Below, one piece after another: positions 2,638 to 15,111 of a stretch of 32,000 nucleotides of DNA. The DNA is from Synechocystis sp. PCC 6803 substr. PCC-P (GTDB lineage: Bacteria > Cyanobacteriota > Cyanobacteriia > Cyanobacteriales > Microcystaceae), in the NCBI RefSeq assembly GCF_000284455.1, contig NC_017039.1, positions 2,910,001 through 2,942,000 of the forward strand. Direction: 5' to 3'. Positions within the stretch are counted from its first letter, which is position 1. Every line of letters begins with the position of its first letter. Both the position numbers and the translations under genes were made by a program. A model generated the notes under the pieces. That model did not search any database, had not been told where the DNA came from, and saw only the letters and a list, made by a program, of their open reading frames with translations.

Positions 2638-3624
<987 letters not shown>

Positions 3625-3638
3625 TTCACCGATAAATT

Positions 3639-3657
3639 CCCCCCAGCCTTGGGGGGG
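3639..3657. terminator. GC-rich hairpin between convergent por and lipase genes (possible bidirectional terminator)
   Basis: CCCCCCA-gcct-TGGGGGG forms a 7-bp stem with a 4-nt loop. A second G6 run at 3661-3666 could pair alternatively. There is no clear U-tract on either strand, so function is uncertain. Confidence 0.4.
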
Positions 3658-3680
3658 TCAGGGGGGCAGTTCAAAAACGA

Positions 3681-4838
3681 TCAAACGGCGGCGATTGGAT
3701 AATCTCTGGACTGATCCGTTTCCACTTCCCTATCCACTGCTCCCTGGTAGGTATCCACCACATGGTTGGGTAAGATGTCCCCTCCTTGGCTGAGGAAACT
3801 CCAACTTTGCCCGACATGGACATAGGTGCCTAACCCCGTAGTGGGGGGCAGGAGGGGAATCACGTCTGCGAGGTTAACAATACGGTAACTGTTGGGCACT
3901 TGGCGGGAATGGAGTTGGGCAAAGGTCACATCGCCGACCCTGGGGCAGGCATAGCTATAAAGTTGAATCTGGGACCGTAAGTTGGGGAGGTTAACCGCTA
4001 GATCCAACGCCGCCAGCACCGCCAGGGAAGCCCCCAAACTATGGCCAGTGACGTAACAGGGCACGGCCGGGTCTAACTGCTGGGCAATTTCCCTCGGAAT
4101 GGGACTGACAATACGGAGATAATTTTCGATAAAGCCCTGGTGAATTTTGCCAAAATATTGCCCCGATCGCCGTTCGGTGAAGGGAATTTGTTGGGCCCGG
4201 AGATTATTGACCCATTCCATGGTGGTTTGGGTACCCCGAAAAACAATGAGATTGCGGCGGGGAGAACTGAGGATAAAACCCAGGTAAACGGGGATTTCCT
4301 GGGTTACTTTGACCACTTGACGAATGGTTTCCCCCAGGGAATCTTCCGCTTGGTCCCAGGTTTTATCTAAGGGGTCACCGGTATTATCCAGGGGAATTTG
4401 CACCGCAACGGATTCGGAAATGTGAGCTTCCCTACCGCGAAAAGAAGCAATTTGTTTATACTCATCCAGGTCGGAGCTATAGGCCGGTAACTGGCGAATA
4501 TTGCCGTCGTAGCTAGGGATGGTTTTCCCAGTTAAGTATTGCTGGGTGGCGATTTTACTGCAACGGATCAGCAATTGGGAAATTTGGCGATCGTAGGGCA
4601 GGATAGGGGGAGTGAGCCTAACACTGTTAATAATTTCCTCGCCCCGGTAAATTTTTTCCGCATCCGCTTCAAAGGCGGCATTTAACATGCTGGTGCGGTC
4701 GGTGTTGGCCGCTTGGGCTTTGGCTAATGCCTGTAATTCCCTGATTTCCTGGCGATGGCGTTCCTCCCGGCCTATGGTGAATGCTCCCCCCAGGGCCACT
4801 CCCCCCAGCAATAGTCGGCGGCGGTTAAAGATGCCCAT
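3681..4838 (-). CDS. Class 3 (alpha/beta-hydrolase) lipase with twin-arginine signal peptide
   Basis: Nucleophile elbow GHSLGAS within VTGHSLGASLAVLAALDL. The preferred start is the ATG at 4838 (MGIFNRRRLLLGGVALGGAFTIG, Tat-like RRR plus hydrophobic core). The longer ORF to 4958 would run through the upstream gene. Confidence 0.8.
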   Translation of the reverse strand: MGIFNRRRLLLGGVALGGAFTIGREERHRQEIRELQALAKAQAANTDRTSMLNAAFEADAEKIYRGEEIINSVRLTPPILPYDRQISQLLIRCSKIATQQYLTGKTIPSYDGNIRQLPAYSSDLDEYKQIASFRGREAHISESVAVQIPLDNTGDPLDKTWDQAEDSLGETIRQVVKVTQEIPVYLGFILSSPRRNLIVFRGTQTTMEWVNNLRAQQIPFTERRSGQYFGKIHQGFIENYLRIVSPIPREIAQQLDPAVPCYVTGHSLGASLAVLAALDLAVNLPNLRSQIQLYSYACPRVGDVTFAQLHSRQVPNSYRIVNLADVIPLLPPTTGLGTYVHVGQSWSFLSQGGDILPNHVVDTYQGAVDREVETDQSRDYPIAAV

Positions 4839-7533: not shown

Positions 7534-9051
7534 GTGATTGCACAAATTAATCCACCACCACAAGGACCAGGGCCCCAGGCGATCGCCAATGTGCTTGAAC
7601 AATGGCATTTCCTGAACATTTGGCTGTTTGAAACACTGAATACTCCCATCTTCAAATTGGGCACTGAAAGCATCACTTTATGGTGGATTATTCAAGCCTG
7701 TTTTCTCCTTTTGCTGGTAGGAGTATTCGCCAAAGCTACTAAACAATTCCTAAAAAAGTTCCTACTGCTCAAACTTAGATTTAGTGAAGGTAACCGAGAA
7801 GTAATTGGTACATTAACTAGTTTGGGGGTGGCCGTATTAGGCTTTATCGTTGTATTGCAAGCCATGGGCTTGGAACTAGCTAGCTTTGCAGTAATTATGG
7901 GGGGACTAGGGATTGGCATTGGTTTTGGCTTGCAGGAATTAACTAGGAATTTAGTCAGTGGTTTGACAATTTTCGGCGAAAATAAACTTAAAGTTGGTGA
8001 CTTAATTGAATTTAATAATCACATTGGTTACATCAAGGAAATTTCCATTCGCTCTACCATCATCCGTACCTTTAGAGGTAGTGACCTAGTGGTGCCCAAC
8101 ACGGATTTAACCAGCAATTTAGTTGTTAACTGGAATTATGAAAATTGTAGTGGCCGCCTGGAAGTACCAGTTAGTGTGGAATATGGCAGTGACCTAGTTT
8201 TGGTCACGGAAGTGCTATTGGAATCCGCCGCCATGGAAAAAAATATTGTCAGCGAGCCCGCACCAAAAGCAGTTTTCCTTGGATTTGGGGACAATTCTCT
8301 TAATTTTGAACTCTGGGTTTGGACTGAAAGAATTGACCAAAGATTTCTCATCTTTAGCTCCCTTAATCACATCATTCAATATAATTGTCGTCGTCGAGGA
8401 ATTAATATGCCCTTTCCCCAAAGGGATATCTGGTTGAGAAATCCAGAAAGTATCTGTCTAGCAGTTAGTGATCAAGACAACAACGCTACAGTCCCCGGGA
8501 AAGAAGTAGGTGAATCCCCTACCCTCACTCAGCTACTGAAGAAAAACTTCTGCTTTCAAAAACTCAACGATCTTGAAATTAGAAATGTGATTGAAATGGG
8601 TAAACGATGGCATTTACAGCCAGGAGAAATTTTAATTAAACAAAACCAATACCACAGCTATTTTTGTATTGTGCTAACTGGGGCGATAGATGCAATTTAT
8701 GAAAATGAAAAAATTAGCAACCGTATATTTACTTTCAAACAGGGAGAATTCTTTGGTGAGTTGCCATTAATGTTAGAAATTCCCTATCCCACTACTATGA
8801 TAGCGGCCGAAGATTCCACTTTATTTTTGATTGGGAAAGATTGTTTTCATATATTGTTAGCAAACCATCCCCAACTATCAAATCTTGTCGCAGAAGAATT
8901 GGGTAAGCGCCAGGATGCTCTCCAGGGCTATGAACAAAAACTGAAAGAAATGGGACTACTCGAAGAGGCAGATCTAAAGAACCCGGTGGAATGGATTCGG
9001 CAAAGAATTAATAAGATTTTTGGTGTCAGTCAAGAATCTGCATATCGTTAA
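7534..9051 (+). CDS. MscS-family mechanosensitive channel fused to a C-terminal cyclic-nucleotide-binding domain
   Basis: GTG start; there is no in-frame ATG before the first transmembrane helix. MscS pore/beta-domain signature: GLGIGIGFGLQELTRNLVSGLTIFGENKLKVGDLIEF...IRTFRGSDLVVPN. The C-terminal cNMP-binding fold includes FFGELPL. This architecture is known as the bCNG-type channel. Confidence 0.85.
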   Translation: MIAQINPPPQGPGPQAIANVLEQWHFLNIWLFETLNTPIFKLGTESITLWWIIQACFLLLLVGVFAKATKQFLKKFLLLKLRFSEGNREVIGTLTSLGVAVLGFIVVLQAMGLELASFAVIMGGLGIGIGFGLQELTRNLVSGLTIFGENKLKVGDLIEFNNHIGYIKEISIRSTIIRTFRGSDLVVPNTDLTSNLVVNWNYENCSGRLEVPVSVEYGSDLVLVTEVLLESAAMEKNIVSEPAPKAVFLGFGDNSLNFELWVWTERIDQRFLIFSSLNHIIQYNCRRRGINMPFPQRDIWLRNPESICLAVSDQDNNATVPGKEVGESPTLTQLLKKNFCFQKLNDLEIRNVIEMGKRWHLQPGEILIKQNQYHSYFCIVLTGAIDAIYENEKISNRIFTFKQGEFFGELPLMLEIPYPTTMIAAEDSTLFLIGKDCFHILLANHPQLSNLVAEELGKRQDALQGYEQKLKEMGLLEEADLKNPVEWIRQRINKIFGVSQESAYR

Positions 9052-9420: not shown

Positions 9421-10285
9421 GAGCGTGTTTGAAAAGTAGGGTGAAGAATGGAAAATGGTGAAAAGAATAAAATTTTCACCATAATTAATGATAATCCGAG
9501 AATTTTACAGCACGGACATCACTGATAGCCAGTGGCAATTGGTAGAACCTCATTTACCCAAAGCAAAAACTGGGGGAAGAAAACGGAAAACTAGTCTGAG
9601 GGAGATACTCAATGCTATTTTTTACATGCTCAGAACGGGGTGTGCCTGGCGACTTCTGCCCCATGATTTTCCTAAATGGCGAACGGTCTATGGTTATTTC
9701 CAGCAATGGCACGAAGATGGTACCTGGAAAAAATTAAACCGTATCTTCCGTGAGAAAGTTCGGCTCAAAGCTGGAAGAAATACTCACCCTAGTGCCGGTT
9801 GTTTAGATTCACAGTCACTTAAAAAGGCTGGAACTGGCCAAGAAACTGGCTATGACGGCGGAAAAAAGGTCAATGGTCGTAAACGTACAATCCTCGTGGA
9901 TACCATGGGATTACTTCTCGATGTTGTCGGTGCCCATCGCTCTGACCATCAGGGTCTGATTCTACTTGGCACCTGGTTTGCTCCCCTGTGGCAGTGCCTG
10001 CAAGTTATATGGACTGACAGCACCTTTGGCGGAAAGGATTTTATTTTCTGGGTGGAGCATACTTTTGGTTGGACCTTGAATGTGGTCAGCAAAAAGCAGG
10101 GACAAAAAGGCTTTGAAGTCCTACCCCGCCGTTGGGTAGTCGAGCGCACTTTTGCTTGGTTTGGTCGTTATCGTCGTTTAAGCAAAGATTATGAATATTT
10201 ACCTACCACCAGTGAGACAATGCTCTATGTTGCCATGGTTCATCTCATGCTTCAAAGGCTTGCTTAAAACTTTTCAAACACTTTC
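9421..10285 (+). mobile_element. Intact small IS5-family (IS427/IS1031-like) insertion sequence, 865 bp
   Basis: The left end is GAGCGTGTTTGAAAAGT (9421-9437). The reverse complement of the right end is GAAAGTGTTTGAAAAGT (10269-10285), matching 15 of 17 with a perfect 13-bp core. It is flanked by direct TTA at 9418-9420 and 10286-10288. It carries a single transposase ORF. Confidence 0.85.
9488..10267 (+). CDS. IS5-family DDE transposase
   Basis: The N-terminal region has the pattern typical of IS427/IS1031-group transposases: TDSQWQLVEPHLPKAKTGGRKRKTSLREILNAIFYMLRTGCAWRLLPHDFPKWRTVYGYFQQWHEDGTW. The C-terminal DDE region includes VERTFAWFGRYRRLSKDYE. Confidence 0.9.
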   Translation: MIIREFYSTDITDSQWQLVEPHLPKAKTGGRKRKTSLREILNAIFYMLRTGCAWRLLPHDFPKWRTVYGYFQQWHEDGTWKKLNRIFREKVRLKAGRNTHPSAGCLDSQSLKKAGTGQETGYDGGKKVNGRKRTILVDTMGLLLDVVGAHRSDHQGLILLGTWFAPLWQCLQVIWTDSTFGGKDFIFWVEHTFGWTLNVVSKKQGQKGFEVLPRRWVVERTFAWFGRYRRLSKDYEYLPTTSETMLYVAMVHLMLQRLA

Positions 10286-10288
10286 TTA

Positions 10289-10597
10289 CAAAAAGTAGAT
10301 AAAATTGCATGGTTGATATTTAATGAATACCTAAAAGGATTTGCCGAAGTCGCTACTATTCCAGAAGAAGGAACTGGGTATATTGATAAGCTTTACATAT
10401 CAAAGAGACGATATTTACAACCAGCTAAAGTTAACATCAAAATCTTAGATTCTAATTGTAGTGTTTGGCTTCCTTTTGGAAAATCGCTTGAATTTAAAAA
10501 CTATGTAGATGCAAAAGAAGAAATTAAGAAACGTTTAAATAATGCTGGTTTTTCAAGTATAAAAATTTCCTTTAAGCAGGAATCAATTATTTCTTAA
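10289..10597 (+). pseudogene. 3' continuation of the decayed IS701-like transposase gene (truncated)
   Basis: This segment is in frame with 9229-9420 once the IS and one TTA copy are removed (...GNSPWSL|QKVDKIAWLIFNEYLK...). EEGTGYIDK and RRYLQPAKVNIKILDSNCSVWL weakly resemble the IS701 DDTG..KKG and RQY.G..GK..NCQ motifs. It ends after about 100 codons, far short of a full transposase. Confidence 0.45.
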
Positions 10598-10734: not shown

Positions 10735-11187
10735 TCAAGGCATGGCCCCAGCACCAATTAAGAGGGAAACCCGATCACCGCCCACTTCCTTCAAGCTAGA
10801 GAGAATTTCAATGGCACTTTGATAGGGAACGTCCCCTGACACCCGCAGGTAAACGTAGCGCTGGGGGGACTGTTGCAAATAGTTAGGTAACTGCTGTAGA
10901 AGTTGAGCTTTTTCCACAGGGCGATCATTTACCGAGAGTTTTCCCCCTGGGTGTAACACCACTGGGAGAAATTGCGGCTCTTCCGGGTTTTCTAATGGCG
11001 CTTCGGCGGATTGGACCTCCGTAGTTTCAGCTTCCTGGGGTAAACGAACCAGCAAAGATGCTCCCTCTTCCGCTAGGTTGGCGGCAACGGCGACAAAAAA
11101 GGCCAACACGACCAGCATCACATTGAGCATGGGGGTAATTTCTAGTTCCGGCAATTTGTCCCGGTCTTGTCGGTGTCTAAATTTCAT
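10735..11187 (-). CDS. exbD: ExbD/TolR-family protein, paralogue 2, with Asn at the conserved transmembrane Asp position
   Basis: LEITPMLNVMLVVLAFFV aligns with E. coli ExbD INVTPFIDVMLVLLIIFMV. A periplasmic domain follows (YVYLRVSGDVPYQSAIEILSSLKEVG). ATGA start/stop overlap with the upstream exbD. Confidence 0.85.
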   Translation of the reverse strand: MKFRHRQDRDKLPELEITPMLNVMLVVLAFFVAVAANLAEEGASLLVRLPQEAETTEVQSAEAPLENPEEPQFLPVVLHPGGKLSVNDRPVEKAQLLQQLPNYLQQSPQRYVYLRVSGDVPYQSAIEILSSLKEVGGDRVSLLIGAGAMP

Positions 11188-11627
11188 AGCTCTGGGTCTG
11201 ATTTATGAACCACCAAAAGGACCCGATCGCCGCCTACTTCCACCATTTGGACTAATAAATCATCCACTTGACGATAGTTTAACTGTCCGTCCACCGTTAA
11301 CCTCACCTCACCCTGGGGATGGGTCGCTAAAAAGGTGGCGATCGCCGTTAATAATTTATCCCTTTCGACGATATTGCCTCCCAGCAAAACGTCACCCTGA
11401 CGATTTAAACCCACATCTAAACTAGGTGCCTTGACCTTTGTTTGGGGGGATGAATCCTCTTCTTTGGCAAAACCGCCTGCGCTCTCCGGTGGCTCTAGAT
11501 CGGCGATCACCCTACCAGTCAAAGACATGGTTAAAATTACAAAAAAGGTTAATACCGACATCAAGACATCAATCATCGGTACTAAATTAATCCCTGGAGT
11601 CCTTGCCCCCCTGACTCGGCTTTTCAT
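11184..11627 (-). CDS. exbD: ExbD/TolR-family protein, paralogue 1 (canonical transmembrane Asp)
   Basis: INLVPMIDVLMSVLTFFVI carries the conserved Asp. Periplasmic domain: VRLTVDGQLNYRQVDDLLVQMVEVG. It starts 3 nt after the exbB stop. Confidence 0.9.
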   Translation of the reverse strand: MKSRVRGARTPGINLVPMIDVLMSVLTFFVILTMSLTGRVIADLEPPESAGGFAKEEDSSPQTKVKAPSLDVGLNRQGDVLLGGNIVERDKLLTAIATFLATHPQGEVRLTVDGQLNYRQVDDLLVQMVEVGGDRVLLVVHKSDPEL

Positions 11628-11630
11628 CGG

Positions 11631-12341
11631 TTATGGCTCAGCAATTCTAGCCGCCATTAATAAATTGGGCATTGGCTGATGAGGTTCGTACCAGACCTCA
11701 CGGTAAATAAGTTCTAATTCACTGCCCACTGCGGCAAAATAATCCATTTGTTGGGACTGTAAACTGACCAAAACCCTAAATACTAACAGGGCAAAAATCG
11801 CCACCATCATCCCCGCTGCCGTGGTAATCAACGCTTCTCCAATGCCCGAGGCGGCCTGGGTAGCCTCCGCACTGGAGCCTCCTCCCCCGATATTGAGATT
11901 GTTAAAAGTGCGAATTAAGCCCGTTACGGTGCCTAACAAGCCCAAGAGAGGAGCTAGGGCAATGATAGTTTCCAGGAGTTTATCCCCCCGTCGCATTCGG
12001 GCAAATTCTTTATCGGCGGTGGCTTCCATGGCCAAACGGAAAGTTTCTGGACTAGGATGGCGTAGTTTAAGGGGAGCCAGCAGAAAACGACCAATGGCTA
12101 AATGTCGAGCATGTTCAGCAATTTCCCGAGCCTTTACCAAATCCTCAACCGCCGCATCGAGCACATCCCGCACAACCTGGTCTTCTTGAATCAGTAGGCG
12201 ACTCCAAAACCAACCTCGTTCGAAGGCAGTGGTAAGGGCAAGGATGGACAGCAGTAACAAAGGAAACATCACTACCCCTCCCTTAAGAAACTCATCGAGT
12301 AGCCGCGGAGTTTGAGTCAAAAACAGGGGGGATGGGGCCAT
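11631..12341 (-). CDS. exbB: ExbB/TolQ/MotA-family proton-channel protein
   Basis: Motifs APLLGLLGTVTGLIRTF and GEALITTAAGMMVAIFALLVF. The preferred start is the ATG at 12341 (MAPSPLF...). The longer ORF starts at a GTG at 12395, inside the AT-rich putative operator region. Confidence 0.9.
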   Translation of the reverse strand: MAPSPLFLTQTPRLLDEFLKGGVVMFPLLLLSILALTTAFERGWFWSRLLIQEDQVVRDVLDAAVEDLVKAREIAEHARHLAIGRFLLAPLKLRHPSPETFRLAMEATADKEFARMRRGDKLLETIIALAPLLGLLGTVTGLIRTFNNLNIGGGGSSAEATQAASGIGEALITTAAGMMVAIFALLVFRVLVSLQSQQMDYFAAVGSELELIYREVWYEPHQPMPNLLMAARIAEP

Positions 12342-12365
12342 GGACAGAAAACAGGGAAATTTTCT

Positions 12366-12442
12366 AAATAATAATCTCTTGCAATTATCCAGCACAAGTG
12401 CTTCAATAATTTATGGATTATTGCACTTTATTTGCAATAAAG
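12366..12442. promoter_or_regulatory. Cluster of AT-rich inverted repeats / Fur-box-like elements in the exbB-futA2 divergent intergenic region
   Basis: CAATAAT-ttatgg-ATTATTG lies at 12404-12423 and CTTTATT-tgc-AATAAAG at 12426-12442. The motif T[GC]CAAT[AT]A recurs four times on both strands. ATAATC/GATTAT hexamers, as in the Fur consensus GATAATGATAATCATTATC, are present. The cluster lies 25-100 nt upstream of the exbB ATG. Confidence 0.4.
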
Positions 12443-12606
12443 TTGACTATCCGAGGTTGACCCACTCCAGATGCCCATTAAGCTATCTATCACTAGCCAA
12501 ACAAGCCCAGACATGGGGCCTAGTTCGGATTAAGGGGACTGGGTTGAGCCTGCACTATTGATTACTTTCATTTTAAATTGCCCACTATCCATTGCCCTAG
12601 ACTTCG

Positions 12607-13647
12607 ATGACAACTAAGATTTCCCGGCGGACTTTTTTTGTGGGCGGCACCGCCCTCACTGCCCTAGTGGTAGCTAATTTGCCCCGGCGGGCCTCTGCCC
12701 AGTCCCGCACGATCAACCTCTATTCTTCACGGCATTACAACACCGATGATGCCCTCTACGATGCTTTTGGCGAGGTTAACCTCATTGAGGCCAGTGCCGA
12801 AGAACTGATTGAGCGTATCCAAAGTGAAGGGGCTAATAGTCCAGGGGATATTTTATTCACCGTAGATGCCGGTATGTTATGGCGGGCGGAACAGGCGGGA
12901 CTTTTCCAACCGGTGCGCAGCGGCAAGCTGAATGAGCGCATTCCCGAAAATTTGCGCCACCCTGATGGGCTATGGTATGGCTTCACCCAGAGAGCCCGGG
13001 TGTTGTATTACAGTCGCGACCGGGTCAATCCAGCGGATCTCTCCACCTACGAAGCCCTGGCGGATCCCCAATGGCGAGGAAAAATTCTGGTGCGCCCTTC
13101 CAGTAATGTATATAACCTTTCCCTAACTGCTTCCCGCATTGCCATCCATGGAGAGCCAGAAACCCGCCGCTGGTTACAAGGCTTGGTGGGTAACTTTGCC
13201 CGGCAACCGGAGGGTAATGACACGGCACAAATTCGTGCTATTGCCGCCGGCATCGGAGATGTGGCGATCGCCAATAGCTACTACTATATCCGCCTGCAAA
13301 AGTCCACCGATCCCGCCGATCAAGAAGTGGTGGAAAAAGTCAGCCTTTTCTTTCCAAACACTGGCTCCGGAGAGCGGGGAACCCATGTCAATGTCAGTGG
13401 GGCTGGGGTGCTGAAAAATGCCCCCAATCGAGACGCGGCGATCGCCTTCCTGGAATATCTAGCCAGTGATGACGCCCAACGTTATTTTGCTGAGGGCAAC
13501 AATGAGTATCCGGTAATTCCAGGGGTACCCATTGATCCTGTGCTAGCCGCCCATGGCCAACTAAAAGGAGACCCCCTCAATGTTTCTAACTTGGGACGTT
13601 ACCAACCCGATTCAGCTCGTTTAATGAATGAAGTTGGCTGGCAGTAA
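12607..13647 (+). CDS. futA2: Periplasmic ferric-iron-binding protein of the Fut ABC transporter (FutA2/IdiA-like), Tat signal
   Basis: 346 aa. Twin-arginine signal SRRTFFVGGTALTALVV...ASA. Iron-binding SBP fold motifs: INLYSSRHYNTDDALYDAF and ANSYYY. I recognise it as Synechocystis FutA2 from memory. Confidence 0.9.
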   Translation: MTTKISRRTFFVGGTALTALVVANLPRRASAQSRTINLYSSRHYNTDDALYDAFGEVNLIEASAEELIERIQSEGANSPGDILFTVDAGMLWRAEQAGLFQPVRSGKLNERIPENLRHPDGLWYGFTQRARVLYYSRDRVNPADLSTYEALADPQWRGKILVRPSSNVYNLSLTASRIAIHGEPETRRWLQGLVGNFARQPEGNDTAQIRAIAAGIGDVAIANSYYYIRLQKSTDPADQEVVEKVSLFFPNTGSGERGTHVNVSGAGVLKNAPNRDAAIAFLEYLASDDAQRYFAEGNNEYPVIPGVPIDPVLAAHGQLKGDPLNVSNLGRYQPDSARLMNEVGWQ

Positions 13648-13710: not shown

Positions 13711-13819
13711 GGGGTTAGAACACGATATGGTTTTGGCAGGATCAAACGCCGTTCTCAAACTTTCAGAGGTACGGTGTTTTTGTTGCCAGTCTTCTGTTTC
13801 TTCCCTTTTTTTGGATTCC

Positions 13820-14614
13820 ATGTGGCCCCTCTCCTGGCATCAGTTAAAATTTCCCCTAGCATTTATCTGTGCTTCTACAATCCATGGAGGGTTACTCTGG
13901 TTACCCTTGCCCCCCCCAGCAGCGGAGTTGGAGCCTCTCCCCCCCCCATCAAAGGATTCTGCTTCCGAGGCGATCGCCACAGTGCCCCTCGCCGACCTAG
14001 TGACACCGGCCCCCATGGCAGAACCTCCGCCAAAGAAATCCCCCCAAGTTTTAGCGCCTCTCCCTGGGTCTCAATCTGTTCGTGAAGTAGTGCCTGATGT
14101 TATAGCGCCACCACCATCTCCTCCCCAAACCACTCCTCTACCGAAAGCCTCCCCTAAAGCAGTAAAGGCACCCCAGGGCGAACCGAATCAAAGGCAGGAC
14201 AACGAAAAAATTGAGCCTGAATCGGTTCCAGAATCCCGCTCTGACCAAGGGCAGGAGGTTGAGAATGAGATTAAAAGTATTGAACCCTCCTCCTTCCCTC
14301 AGCCTAAGAGGGAACTCATCGCTGGCATTGCCCACTTAGAAGGAGCTCAATCAGGATGCTACGGCTCAGAGGATTGTCATTTTCTGGCAGGGGCCACGGT
14401 GCGGGACGTCACCCAAGACCTCCAAGCCCGTTTGGAGGCACAAGGCTTCCGTCTGAGTGAGAGTTATCGAGATACGGGATTGCGGGTATATGAGGTTTAT
14501 CGGCAAGACAAACTACCCCAATTTCTCCACATCGTCAGTGATAATGCGGGACGGGATGCGTTTTATCTTCTCTCCCCCCAACAAAAAACCTTAGAGGAAC
14601 TTAGATCGCAATGA
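13820..14614 (+). CDS. Membrane-anchored Pro-rich protein with TonB-like N-terminus and an unrecognised C-terminal domain
   Basis: The ATG at 13820 gives MWPLSWHQLKFPLAFICASTIHGGLLWLPLPPP. This is a single transmembrane helix with an IHG motif, followed by ~130 aa rich in Pro/Lys/Glu and a ~100-aa C-terminal globular region. An alternative ATG at 13727 would add a T-rich, Cys-rich leader that looks non-coding. Confidence 0.65.
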   Translation: MWPLSWHQLKFPLAFICASTIHGGLLWLPLPPPAAELEPLPPPSKDSASEAIATVPLADLVTPAPMAEPPPKKSPQVLAPLPGSQSVREVVPDVIAPPPSPPQTTPLPKASPKAVKAPQGEPNQRQDNEKIEPESVPESRSDQGQEVENEIKSIEPSSFPQPKRELIAGIAHLEGAQSGCYGSEDCHFLAGATVRDVTQDLQARLEAQGFRLSESYRDTGLRVYEVYRQDKLPQFLHIVSDNAGRDAFYLLSPQQKTLEELRSQ

Positions 14615-15111
14615 ATAACAAAAAACTCAGCCTAACCCTGCCATTGGTAGGAATCCTAGCTCTGACGGCTTGTAATCAGCCCAAGGAAGAAATTGATCCC
14701 CTATCCCAGTTGCGGGAGAAAGGGGAATGTCTTGATTGCAATCTAGCGGGGGCAGACCTGCGGGAGTTTAATTTGGAAAATGCCCGCTTGAACCGTTCTG
14801 ATTTATCGGGGGCAAATTTATCGGGGGTGAATTTACGGCGGGCGTTGTTGGACCGGGCCAACTTGACAGGGGCAAATCTGAGTGAAACGGATTTAACCGA
14901 AGCGGCCTTAACTGAAGCCAATCTGGCCGGGGCGGATTTGAGCGGCGCTAATTTGGAACGGAGTTTTCTGCGGGATGTGGATTTAACTGGAGCTAATCTG
15001 AAAGGAGCCAACCTAGCCTGGGCCAATTTAACGGCGGCCAACTTAACCGATGTCGATTTGGAGGAGGCGGAATTTTGGGAAACAACCATGCCCGATGGTT
15101 CTCGTCGTTAA
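14611..15111 (+). CDS. Pentapeptide-repeat lipoprotein
   Basis: Signal peptide with lipobox LTAC. About 20 consecutive A(D/N)LxG-type pentapeptides follow (CNLAGADLREFNLENARLNRSDLSGANLSGVNL...). ATGA overlap with the upstream gene. Confidence 0.85.
   Translation: MNNKKLSLTLPLVGILALTACNQPKEEIDPLSQLREKGECLDCNLAGADLREFNLENARLNRSDLSGANLSGVNLRRALLDRANLTGANLSETDLTEAALTEANLAGADLSGANLERSFLRDVDLTGANLKGANLAWANLTAANLTDVDLEEAEFWETTMPDGSRR

Follow-up and report, generated by a model that had tools for sequence, protein, structure and literature searches.

How does a family of motors whose hallmark is a mid-membrane Asp (D25 of ExbD, D23 of TolR and D32 of MotB) accommodate an ExbD protein in which this residue is missing? 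The question is raised by three closely packed genes on the minus strand of a stretch of contig NC_017039.1 of 32,000 nucleotides (nt), hereafter the window, whose coordinates are counted from its first letter. According to the coordinates of the open reading frames (ORFs), the gene order is exbB, exbD paralogue 1 and exbD paralogue 2 (Table 1); the Asp is present in paralogue 1 and absent in paralogue 2, which has Asn at this site. With a futA2-like gene diverging from exbB-exbD-exbD, the cluster matches sll0477-sll0478-sll0479 adjoining slr0513 of Synechocystis sp. PCC 6803, and identical proteins were found on >300 contigs of the public collection, with Synechocystis strains as cluster mates. 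Our analysis suggests a reading that we regard as on balance probable, namely that the three genes encode an ExbB5-ExbD(Asp)-ExbD(non-Asp) motor with a single proton-binding site.

The Asp site in two tandem ExbD proteins

Both ExbD proteins scored above the Pfam PF02472 cut-off of 25.4 bits over their full length, with 94.6 bits for paralogue 2 and 64.3 bits for paralogue 1. The ORF of paralogue 1 (11184-11627, minus strand) contains GINLVPMIDVLMSVL, with GAT at 11570-11568, and that of paralogue 2 (10735-11187, minus strand) contains ELEITPMLNVMLVVL, with AAT at 11124-11122; the transmembrane (TM) regions read GINLVPMIDVLMSVLTFF and ELEITPMLNVMLVVLAFF, respectively. In phmmer comparisons with PDB chains, the paralogue 2 segment eleitpmlNvmlvvl was aligned with hdinvtpfiDvmlvll of Escherichia coli ExbD (6tyi) and with Serratia ExbD (7ajq), and Asn22 also fell on Asp23 of TolR (einivpllDvllvll), the residue with which Asp20 of paralogue 1 was aligned. 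These alignments bear out an earlier interpretation made from the letters of the window (the sequence-only reading), which had placed the Asn of paralogue 2 at the position equivalent to Asp25. Reading the sequence again showed that all the coordinates and residues it had given (GAT at 11568-11570 and AAT at 11122-11124) were correct, and the ATGA coupling of the two exbD genes was confirmed as a 4-nt overlap at 11184-11187. The end of exbB is separated from the start of paralogue 1 by 3 nt.

The ExbB protein of the cluster keeps the Thr and Glu residues of the pore. When it was compared by phmmer with ExbB and TolQ structures, its LGTV (Thr148 equivalent) and GEALITTA (Glu176 and Thr181 equivalents) were aligned with LFGTV and AEALLATA of known ExbB proteins, and the protein is 64-86% identical across all the related loci. 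Its true start is probably ATG 12341, since the alignments of orthologues start only at residues 17-29 of the longest ORF. An ExbD gene beside a gene of the MotA/TolQ/ExbB family was found in the window, where exbB lies upstream, and in nearly all related loci. At the level of NCBIfam equivalogs, neither ExbD reached the cut-off of TIGR02803, TIGR02804, NF008429, TIGR02801 or NF008248; the best scores of paralogue 2 were 47.3 bits for tolR (cut-off 127.3) and 39.5 bits for ExbD (cut-off 216), and those of paralogue 1 were lower. ExbB likewise stayed below the exbB and tolQ equivalog cut-offs, and all the ExbB, ExbD, TolQ and TolR models were missed widely.

Published expression data indicated that the Asp-less gene is expressed together with its neighbours, since Kopf et al. 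reported sll0477-0479 as one transcriptional unit (TU3083) that was up-regulated 6.7-fold on iron depletion. Lack of expression of paralogue 2, which would have told against the sequence-only reading, is contradicted by this co-transcription and induction by iron starvation. The adjoining slr0513 was induced 3.6-fold under iron depletion, and Riediger et al. found the two exbD genes, which they name exbD3 and exbD4, to be iron-responsive in two strains, with a Fur box reported for the exbD3/D4 unit in strain 6803; the intergenic region at 12396..12606 presumably carries iron-regulated promoters. As summarized in reviews that cite Jiang et al. (2015), and to the extent of those summaries, the three ExbB-ExbD clusters of Synechocystis are needed for iron uptake.

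Conservation and pairing of non-Asp ExbD genes

To return to the residue itself, Asn was kept in 15 of 15 orthologues of paralogue 2 at 39-98% identity, with E16-V23 invariant, so it is neither a sequencing slip nor a mutation of one strain. When 1.84 billion cluster representatives were searched with a profile, 2,923 matches were obtained; the site was tallied in the best 150 of these and, in addition, in E. coli ExbD, both paralogues of the window and the 15 orthologues. The tally comprised 113 proteins with Asp, 42 with Asn and 7 with Thr, 4 being unaligned; 27 further Asn clusters and the 7 Thr clusters came from the best 150 of the 2,923 matches, and the signature IPML[N/T]VMMxVLAFF was common to all the non-Asp proteins of the tally. 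A second search, made with a profile of 36 non-Asp sequences, returned 1,415 proteins at E < 1e-10. Among the best 120 of these, the motif was readable in 118 (Asn in 95, Thr in 17, Asp in 6), and all the named matches were cyanobacterial, including Coleofasciculus, Symploca, Lyngbya, Leptolyngbyaceae, Oscillatoria, Desertifilum, Phormidesmis and Elainellaceae. Gly was found at the site in one genome locus (L005). These results revealed a lineage of non-Asp ExbD proteins (Asn, Thr and rarely Gly) that is widespread in cyanobacteria and has well over 100 members.

The genomic companions of these genes were analyzed in 65 loci gathered from genome and metagenome scans and exact-protein look-ups, in which every ExbB and ExbD ORF was scored; the scan of genome contigs gave 6 loci only, its patterns being too specific. 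Because the search patterns selected Asn or Thr, the 65-locus set is a census of the companions of non-Asp ExbD and not of their frequency. Flanking DNA was sufficient to judge pairing in 53 loci, and in 48 of them an ExbD gene adjoins the non-Asp exbD. The residue of this partner was Asp in all 46 readable cases, and two further partners were cut by contig ends. A single exbB was adjacent in the paired loci wherever the contig reached far enough upstream, and lay off the end in short contigs. The Asp-type gene precedes the Asn-type gene in 13 loci and follows an Asn-type gene in 9, a Thr-type gene in 23 and a Gly-type gene in 1; since both orders occur, it is the pairing and not the layout that is conserved. 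The sequence-only reading had asked whether Asn-type copies are always paired with an Asp-type copy; for non-Asp copies as a whole, the predicted pairing was seen in 48 of the 53 loci and not in the other five, which are weighed below. In locus L031, the Asp-type partner lies 1 kb away.

One cyanobacterial contig with psaM nearby (L066/L067, cluster at 3001-3867) carries an exbB-exbD-exbD cluster whose two ExbDs each have Asp as well as the Thr/Thr signature, in the order phoU-exbB-exbD-exbD-pstS-like. Its first ExbD is nearer to the non-Asp lineage in the periplasmic part (71 vs 63 mean bits), and the cluster either preserves the ancestral condition or has arisen by reversion, or by gene conversion, of the TM segment. 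A second Asp is thus present in some two-ExbD clusters and absent from others. The site of one paralogue is occupied by Asn, Thr, Gly or Asp, that of the other always by Asp, a pattern as expected if just one Asp is needed.

Analysis of unique segments showed that the TM helix is constrained in both lineages. The mean identity was 68% in the TM segments vs 42% in the periplasmic parts of the non-Asp lineage, and 78% vs 39% in the Asp-type partners. The two helices differ at three positions counted from the Asp site. At +7, Ala was found in 65 of 65 non-Asp proteins, and Thr, Ile or once Leu in the Asp-type partners; at +4, Gly, Ala or Val was found in 62 of 65 non-Asp proteins, whereas Ser or Thr occupied this position in all 46 partners. 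The corresponding residues in the window are Val26 and Ala29 of paralogue 2 vs Ser24 and Thr27 of paralogue 1. The third position, -6, is the canonical Asn of xINxxPxxD, which was retained in 46 of 46 partners and in 15 of 65 non-Asp proteins; the other 50 non-Asp proteins have Asp or Glu, with Glu16 in paralogue 2 and Asp in most of its relatives. Some other ExbD families have Glu at -6 together with a normal Asp.

A candidate single-site motor and its alternatives

In structures determined by cryo-electron microscopy, two ExbD helices lie in an ExbB pentamer, with Asp25 beside a ring of Thr148 and Thr181, and according to the current rotary model the Asp residues of the two helices are protonated in turn, with 36 degrees of rotation per proton. 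When all 19 substitutions of Asp25 were made in E. coli ExbD, only Glu was active, retaining 5-10%. The D25N protein is dominant negative, yet it assembles with ExbB and dimerises. The literature thus agrees with the background on which the sequence-only reading had drawn, namely that D25N is inactive, that TolR and MotB keep the Asp, and that an ExbD dimer lies within an ExbB pentamer. The ExbB5-ExbD2 Ton motor of E. coli, Pseudomonas and Serratia (6tyi, 7ajq) shares with the cluster of the window the Pfam families, the pore-helix motif and the Thr ring and Glu of ExbB; like that motor, the cluster is under iron regulation and has been linked to iron uptake in the literature. The Ton motor differs in having one exbD and an axle formed by two copies of the same ExbD, each with Asp25, whereas here there are two unlike ExbDs, one of them naturally Asp-less, in a cluster that misses the NCBIfam equivalog cut-offs and has no tonB; activity in E. 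coli is lost when the site is changed to Asn, Thr or Gly.

The sequence-only reading had suggested either an obligate ExbD heterodimer with a single proton-binding site or a regulatory or inactive subunit, an interpretation that the comparative data support in part. We propose that the axle of the motor of the window would be a pair of unlike ExbDs, paralogue 1 of the Asp type and paralogue 2 of the non-Asp type, enclosed by a pentamer of ExbB. Proton uptake and release at the ExbB Thr ring would fall to the Asp-type helix alone, so that there would be one proton site in place of two alternating ones. The non-Asp helix, lacking the Asp as well as the Ser or Thr one and two turns below it, would be a passive, tightly packed partner, and its subunit would complete the axle and the periplasmic dimer. 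In Synechocystis, the motor would be made under iron starvation and serve outer-membrane iron uptake. This heteromeric motor is favoured because one exbB accompanies two co-transcribed and coupled exbD genes, because an invariant Asp in one ExbD is set against Asn, Thr or Gly in the other, and because both helices are constrained. Residue identities, conservation and gene pairing were observed here and co-transcription is taken from the literature; from these we infer the 5:1:1 stoichiometry, a pore occupied by both helices and a mechanism with a single proton site.

A heteromeric axle would not be without precedent, to judge by related systems. The AglR-AglQ-AglS machinery of Myxococcus xanthus likewise combines one TolQ/ExbB-like protein with two different TolR/ExbD-like proteins, and AlphaFold modelling predicted an AglQ-AglS heterodimer within an AglR pentamer. 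It differs in that AglQ and AglS are both described with the mid-membrane Asp, and in driving gliding rather than nutrient uptake. Heterologous pairs of single-helix axle proteins have also been predicted in one TolQ-like pentamer for the TPH-vWA proteins (MBE 2025), which differ in that the Asp is kept in each vWA monomer (a conserved pair) and in that the periplasmic domains are unlike. Asn at the proton-binding position is familiar from engineered stators such as MotB D22N/D32N and ExbD D25N, where it is used as a mimic of protonated Asp. Those are loss-of-function homodimers made in the laboratory, whereas here Asn, Thr and Gly are natural, conserved and paired with an Asp partner; since Thr or Gly also occupies the site, imitation of protonated Asp does not by itself account for the substitution. 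Neither a natural Asp-less ExbD nor an Asp/non-Asp asymmetry was found described in open-access papers and bioRxiv, a coverage outside which Jiang et al. (2015) and Qiu et al. (2018) fall.

Several observations weigh against the heteromeric single-site motor. A mixed Asp/Asn dimer should naively fail, because D25N is dominant negative and all substitutions but Glu are dead in E. coli, unless the mixed dimer is made to work by a co-adapted face of small residues on the non-Asp helix. Five of the 53 decidable loci are without an Asp-type copy within ~4 kb, four of them consisting of ExbB and a non-Asp ExbD and one being an orphan, and the sampling of loci was biased to Asn and Thr by the search patterns. 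Neighbour-joining of 149 representatives did not recover a single clean non-Asp clade, Asp and non-Asp tips being interleaved, and with the periplasmic part alone a protein and its nearest neighbour agreed in type in 84-89% of cases rather than 100%. With this partial separation, and because the proteins are short and neighbour-joining is crude, a single origin of the non-Asp proteins is not claimed.

Among the alternatives, the one that survives best, although we consider it unlikely, is that the two ExbDs form separate homodimeric complexes. ExbB5-(Asp-type)2 would then be the working motor, and ExbB5-(non-Asp)2, or a mixed complex, would be a proton-dead brake, scaffold or peptidoglycan anchor, with the non-Asp ExbD as a naturally occurring dominant-negative or regulatory subunit. 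The behaviour of E. coli D25N, which assembles with ExbB, homodimerises and is dominant negative, fits such a role, as do the few loci that have ExbB and a non-Asp ExbD only. A further point in its favour comes from the tandem ExbD1/ExbD2 of Bacteroides, an arrangement also reported in Xanthomonas, Myxococcus and others, which resembles the cluster of the window in that a single ton locus contains two exbD genes. Since transport in Bacteroides fragilis is restored by each exbD on its own, the copies there are redundant, unlike what we propose here, and two ExbDs therefore need not share one axle. No loss of the Asp was reported in the papers on these tandem clusters that the analysis covered. 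On the other side, the genes are co-transcribed and, in the window, translationally coupled, which would fix the ratio of the products and leave a brake no obvious regulatory handle, and a single exbB serves both ExbDs. Moreover, a phylum-wide helix that is as conserved as the active one, with a small-residue signature of its own, is hard to square with a poison subunit.

It is improbable that the proton-binding carboxylate has been moved rather than lost, with the acid at -6 (Glu16) replacing the Asn of xINxxPxxD and handling protons from the cytoplasmic side. The contrast at this position, with an acid in 50 of 65 non-Asp proteins vs Asn in 46 of 46 partners, would be consistent with such a shift. 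However, 15 of the 65 non-Asp proteins manage with Asn there, Glu at -6 occurs alongside the normal Asp in other ExbD families, and the position precedes the Pro at the membrane boundary, away from the Thr ring of ExbB.

Slightly less probable again is a location of paralogue 2 outside the ExbB pore, as a re-purposed peripheral accessory that is TonB/TolA-like or binds peptidoglycan. The lack of a tonB gene in the cluster and the failure to reach the NCBIfam ExbD and TolR equivalog models would accord with this, but paralogue 2 keeps the full pore-helix motif of ExbD (PxxxV...FF) and matches the Pfam ExbD family over its full length with a score above that of its Asp-type neighbour. In addition, it has neither a Pro-rich spacer nor the S/H motor-box features of TonB, and a separate TonB-like ORF lies nearby. 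Finally, although one G-to-A change turns GAT into AAT, the view that paralogue 2 is a decaying duplicate (pseudo-ExbD) or that its Asn is a strain mutation or sequencing error is effectively refuted by its intact ORF, the invariant Asn and TM helix of the 15 orthologues, the size of the clade across cyanobacteria and the reported expression under iron stress.

Genomic context and implications

The coordinates of the cluster and of the features that adjoin it are given in Table 1. Based on the ORF list of the window, tonB and TonB-dependent transporter genes were not found in the cluster. Beyond the futA2-like gene lies an ORF for a conserved hypothetical protein whose layout resembles that of TonB. 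Its TM helix FPLAFICASTIHGGLLWL carries an invariant His within IHG, as in the TM helix of E. coli TonB, and is followed by a long Pro-rich spacer; its C-terminus has ~100 conserved residues, including an invariant GC..GS..CHFL, of which ~80 are folded. The protein had no Pfam or NCBIfam match; 11 homologues were found, unnamed or called 'hypothetical protein', the named ones being from Synechocystis, and nine of them were aligned. The C-terminal domain was predicted by AlphaFold2 (AF2) with a predicted local distance difference test (pLDDT) score of about 76-88. No TonB_C domain was detected in the protein by Pfam, NCBIfam or Foldseek, and the AF2 domain gave no significant PDB match, so the TonB-like reading comes from the N-terminal layout only. 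It is possible, from these features, that the protein is the force-transducing partner of the ExbB-ExbD-ExbD motor. Its ORF overlaps by ATGA (14611-14614) with that of a small pentapeptide-repeat protein (14611-15111, plus strand; Pfam Pentapeptide, 118.7 bits), which is probably exported, and because of this overlap the two may be co-translated.

Table 1. Features of the exbB-exbD-exbD cluster and its surroundings in the window.
Feature	Coordinates	Strand	Basis
exbB (MotA/TolQ/ExbB family)	11631..12395	-	Longest ORF, GTG start at 12395; Pfam PF01618, 110.5 bits
exbD paralogue 1, Asp-type, sll0478-like, 147 aa	11184..11627	-	Pfam PF02472, 64.3 bits; TM motif NLVPMIDVLMSVLTFF
Asp20 codon GAT, proton-binding Asp equivalent to ExbD Asp25/TolR Asp23	11568..11570	-	Sequence and alignment to TolR
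exbD paralogue 2, non-Asp type, sll0479-like, 150 aa	10735..11187	-	Pfam PF02472, 94.6 bits; TM motif EITPMLNVMLVVLAFF
Asn22 codon AAT, site of the essential Asp	11122..11124	-	phmmer alignments to ExbD (6tyi, 7ajq) and TolR
ATGA overlap, paralogue 1 stop/paralogue 2 start, translational coupling	11184..11187	-	ORF coordinates; sequence gagctATGAaattt
Divergent intergenic region, exbB/futA2	12396..12606	.	Lies between exbB and futA2
futA2-like periplasmic Fe(III)-binding protein, divergent from exbB	12607..13647	+	Pfam SBP_bac_8/6/1/11
Conserved hypothetical protein, TonB-like layout	13820..14614	+	Within ORF 13727-14614; N-terminal TM helix, Pro-rich spacer, C-terminal domain

Synteny of the ORF with the TonB-like layout with futA2 and with exbB-exbD-exbD extends to six related loci, and the block formed by futA2, the Pro-rich ORF and exbB-exbD-exbD is common to Synechocystis and to isolates and metagenome-assembled genomes (MAGs) of Phormidium or Oscillatoria. 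In L001-L004, L010 and L011, the futA2-like gene is adjacent and 84-86% identical to that of the window; ExbB is 83-86% identical, and the two ExbDs just 65-68% and 58-68%. This uneven conservation suggests either that the block is a mobile cassette for iron uptake or that its genes have changed at very different rates. In other cyanobacteria, the exbB-exbD-exbD cluster is recurrently linked to transporters with periplasmic binding proteins: in L007, L009 and L066-L068 it often lies beside a PstS-like (PBP_like_2) binding protein with ATP-binding cassette (ABC) permeases, and also beside a protein of 360-380 amino acids without a Pfam match, and it adjoins phoU in L066 and FutA/FutB-like genes in L068. 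The latter locus (2900-3800) also contains an apparent fusion of a Thr-type and an Asp-type ExbD (P0165, 260 amino acids), which was rejected as a frameshift artefact of a draft MAG after its DNA had been read.

On the other flank of the cluster in the window, an IS4/IS5-family transposase (DUF4096 and DDE_Tnp_1; 9488-10267, plus strand) lies ~470 bp downstream of the Asn-type exbD, with an unannotated ORF of 94 amino acids (10313-10597) without a Pfam match between them. Further away, an MscS-type mechanosensitive channel with a C-terminal cyclic-nucleotide-binding domain (Pfam MS_channel_1st/2nd/3rd and cNMP_binding) is encoded at 7534-9051 on the plus strand.

Extended beyond Synechocystis, the sequence data lead us to suggest tentatively, with the balance falling just short of probable, that 5:2 motors of the ExbB type in much of the cyanobacterial phylum may have an axle that is obligately heterodimeric and bears just one proton-binding Asp. 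If this is true, the alternating protonation of two equivalent Asp residues, which is at the core of the ExbBD, TolQR and MotAB models, would not be required, and the second helix may be chemically inert, with Asn, Thr or even Gly at the site. The cluster would then offer a natural asymmetric system bearing on the number of proton sites that a 5:2 motor needs, the step per proton and the role of the second helix, in which single-residue swaps are practical because Synechocystis is genetically tractable and its iron uptake is measurable. For annotation, Asp-less 'ExbD' genes should not be presumed to be interchangeable with canonical ExbD. The two-ExbD motor would also be relevant to the iron physiology of cyanobacteria.

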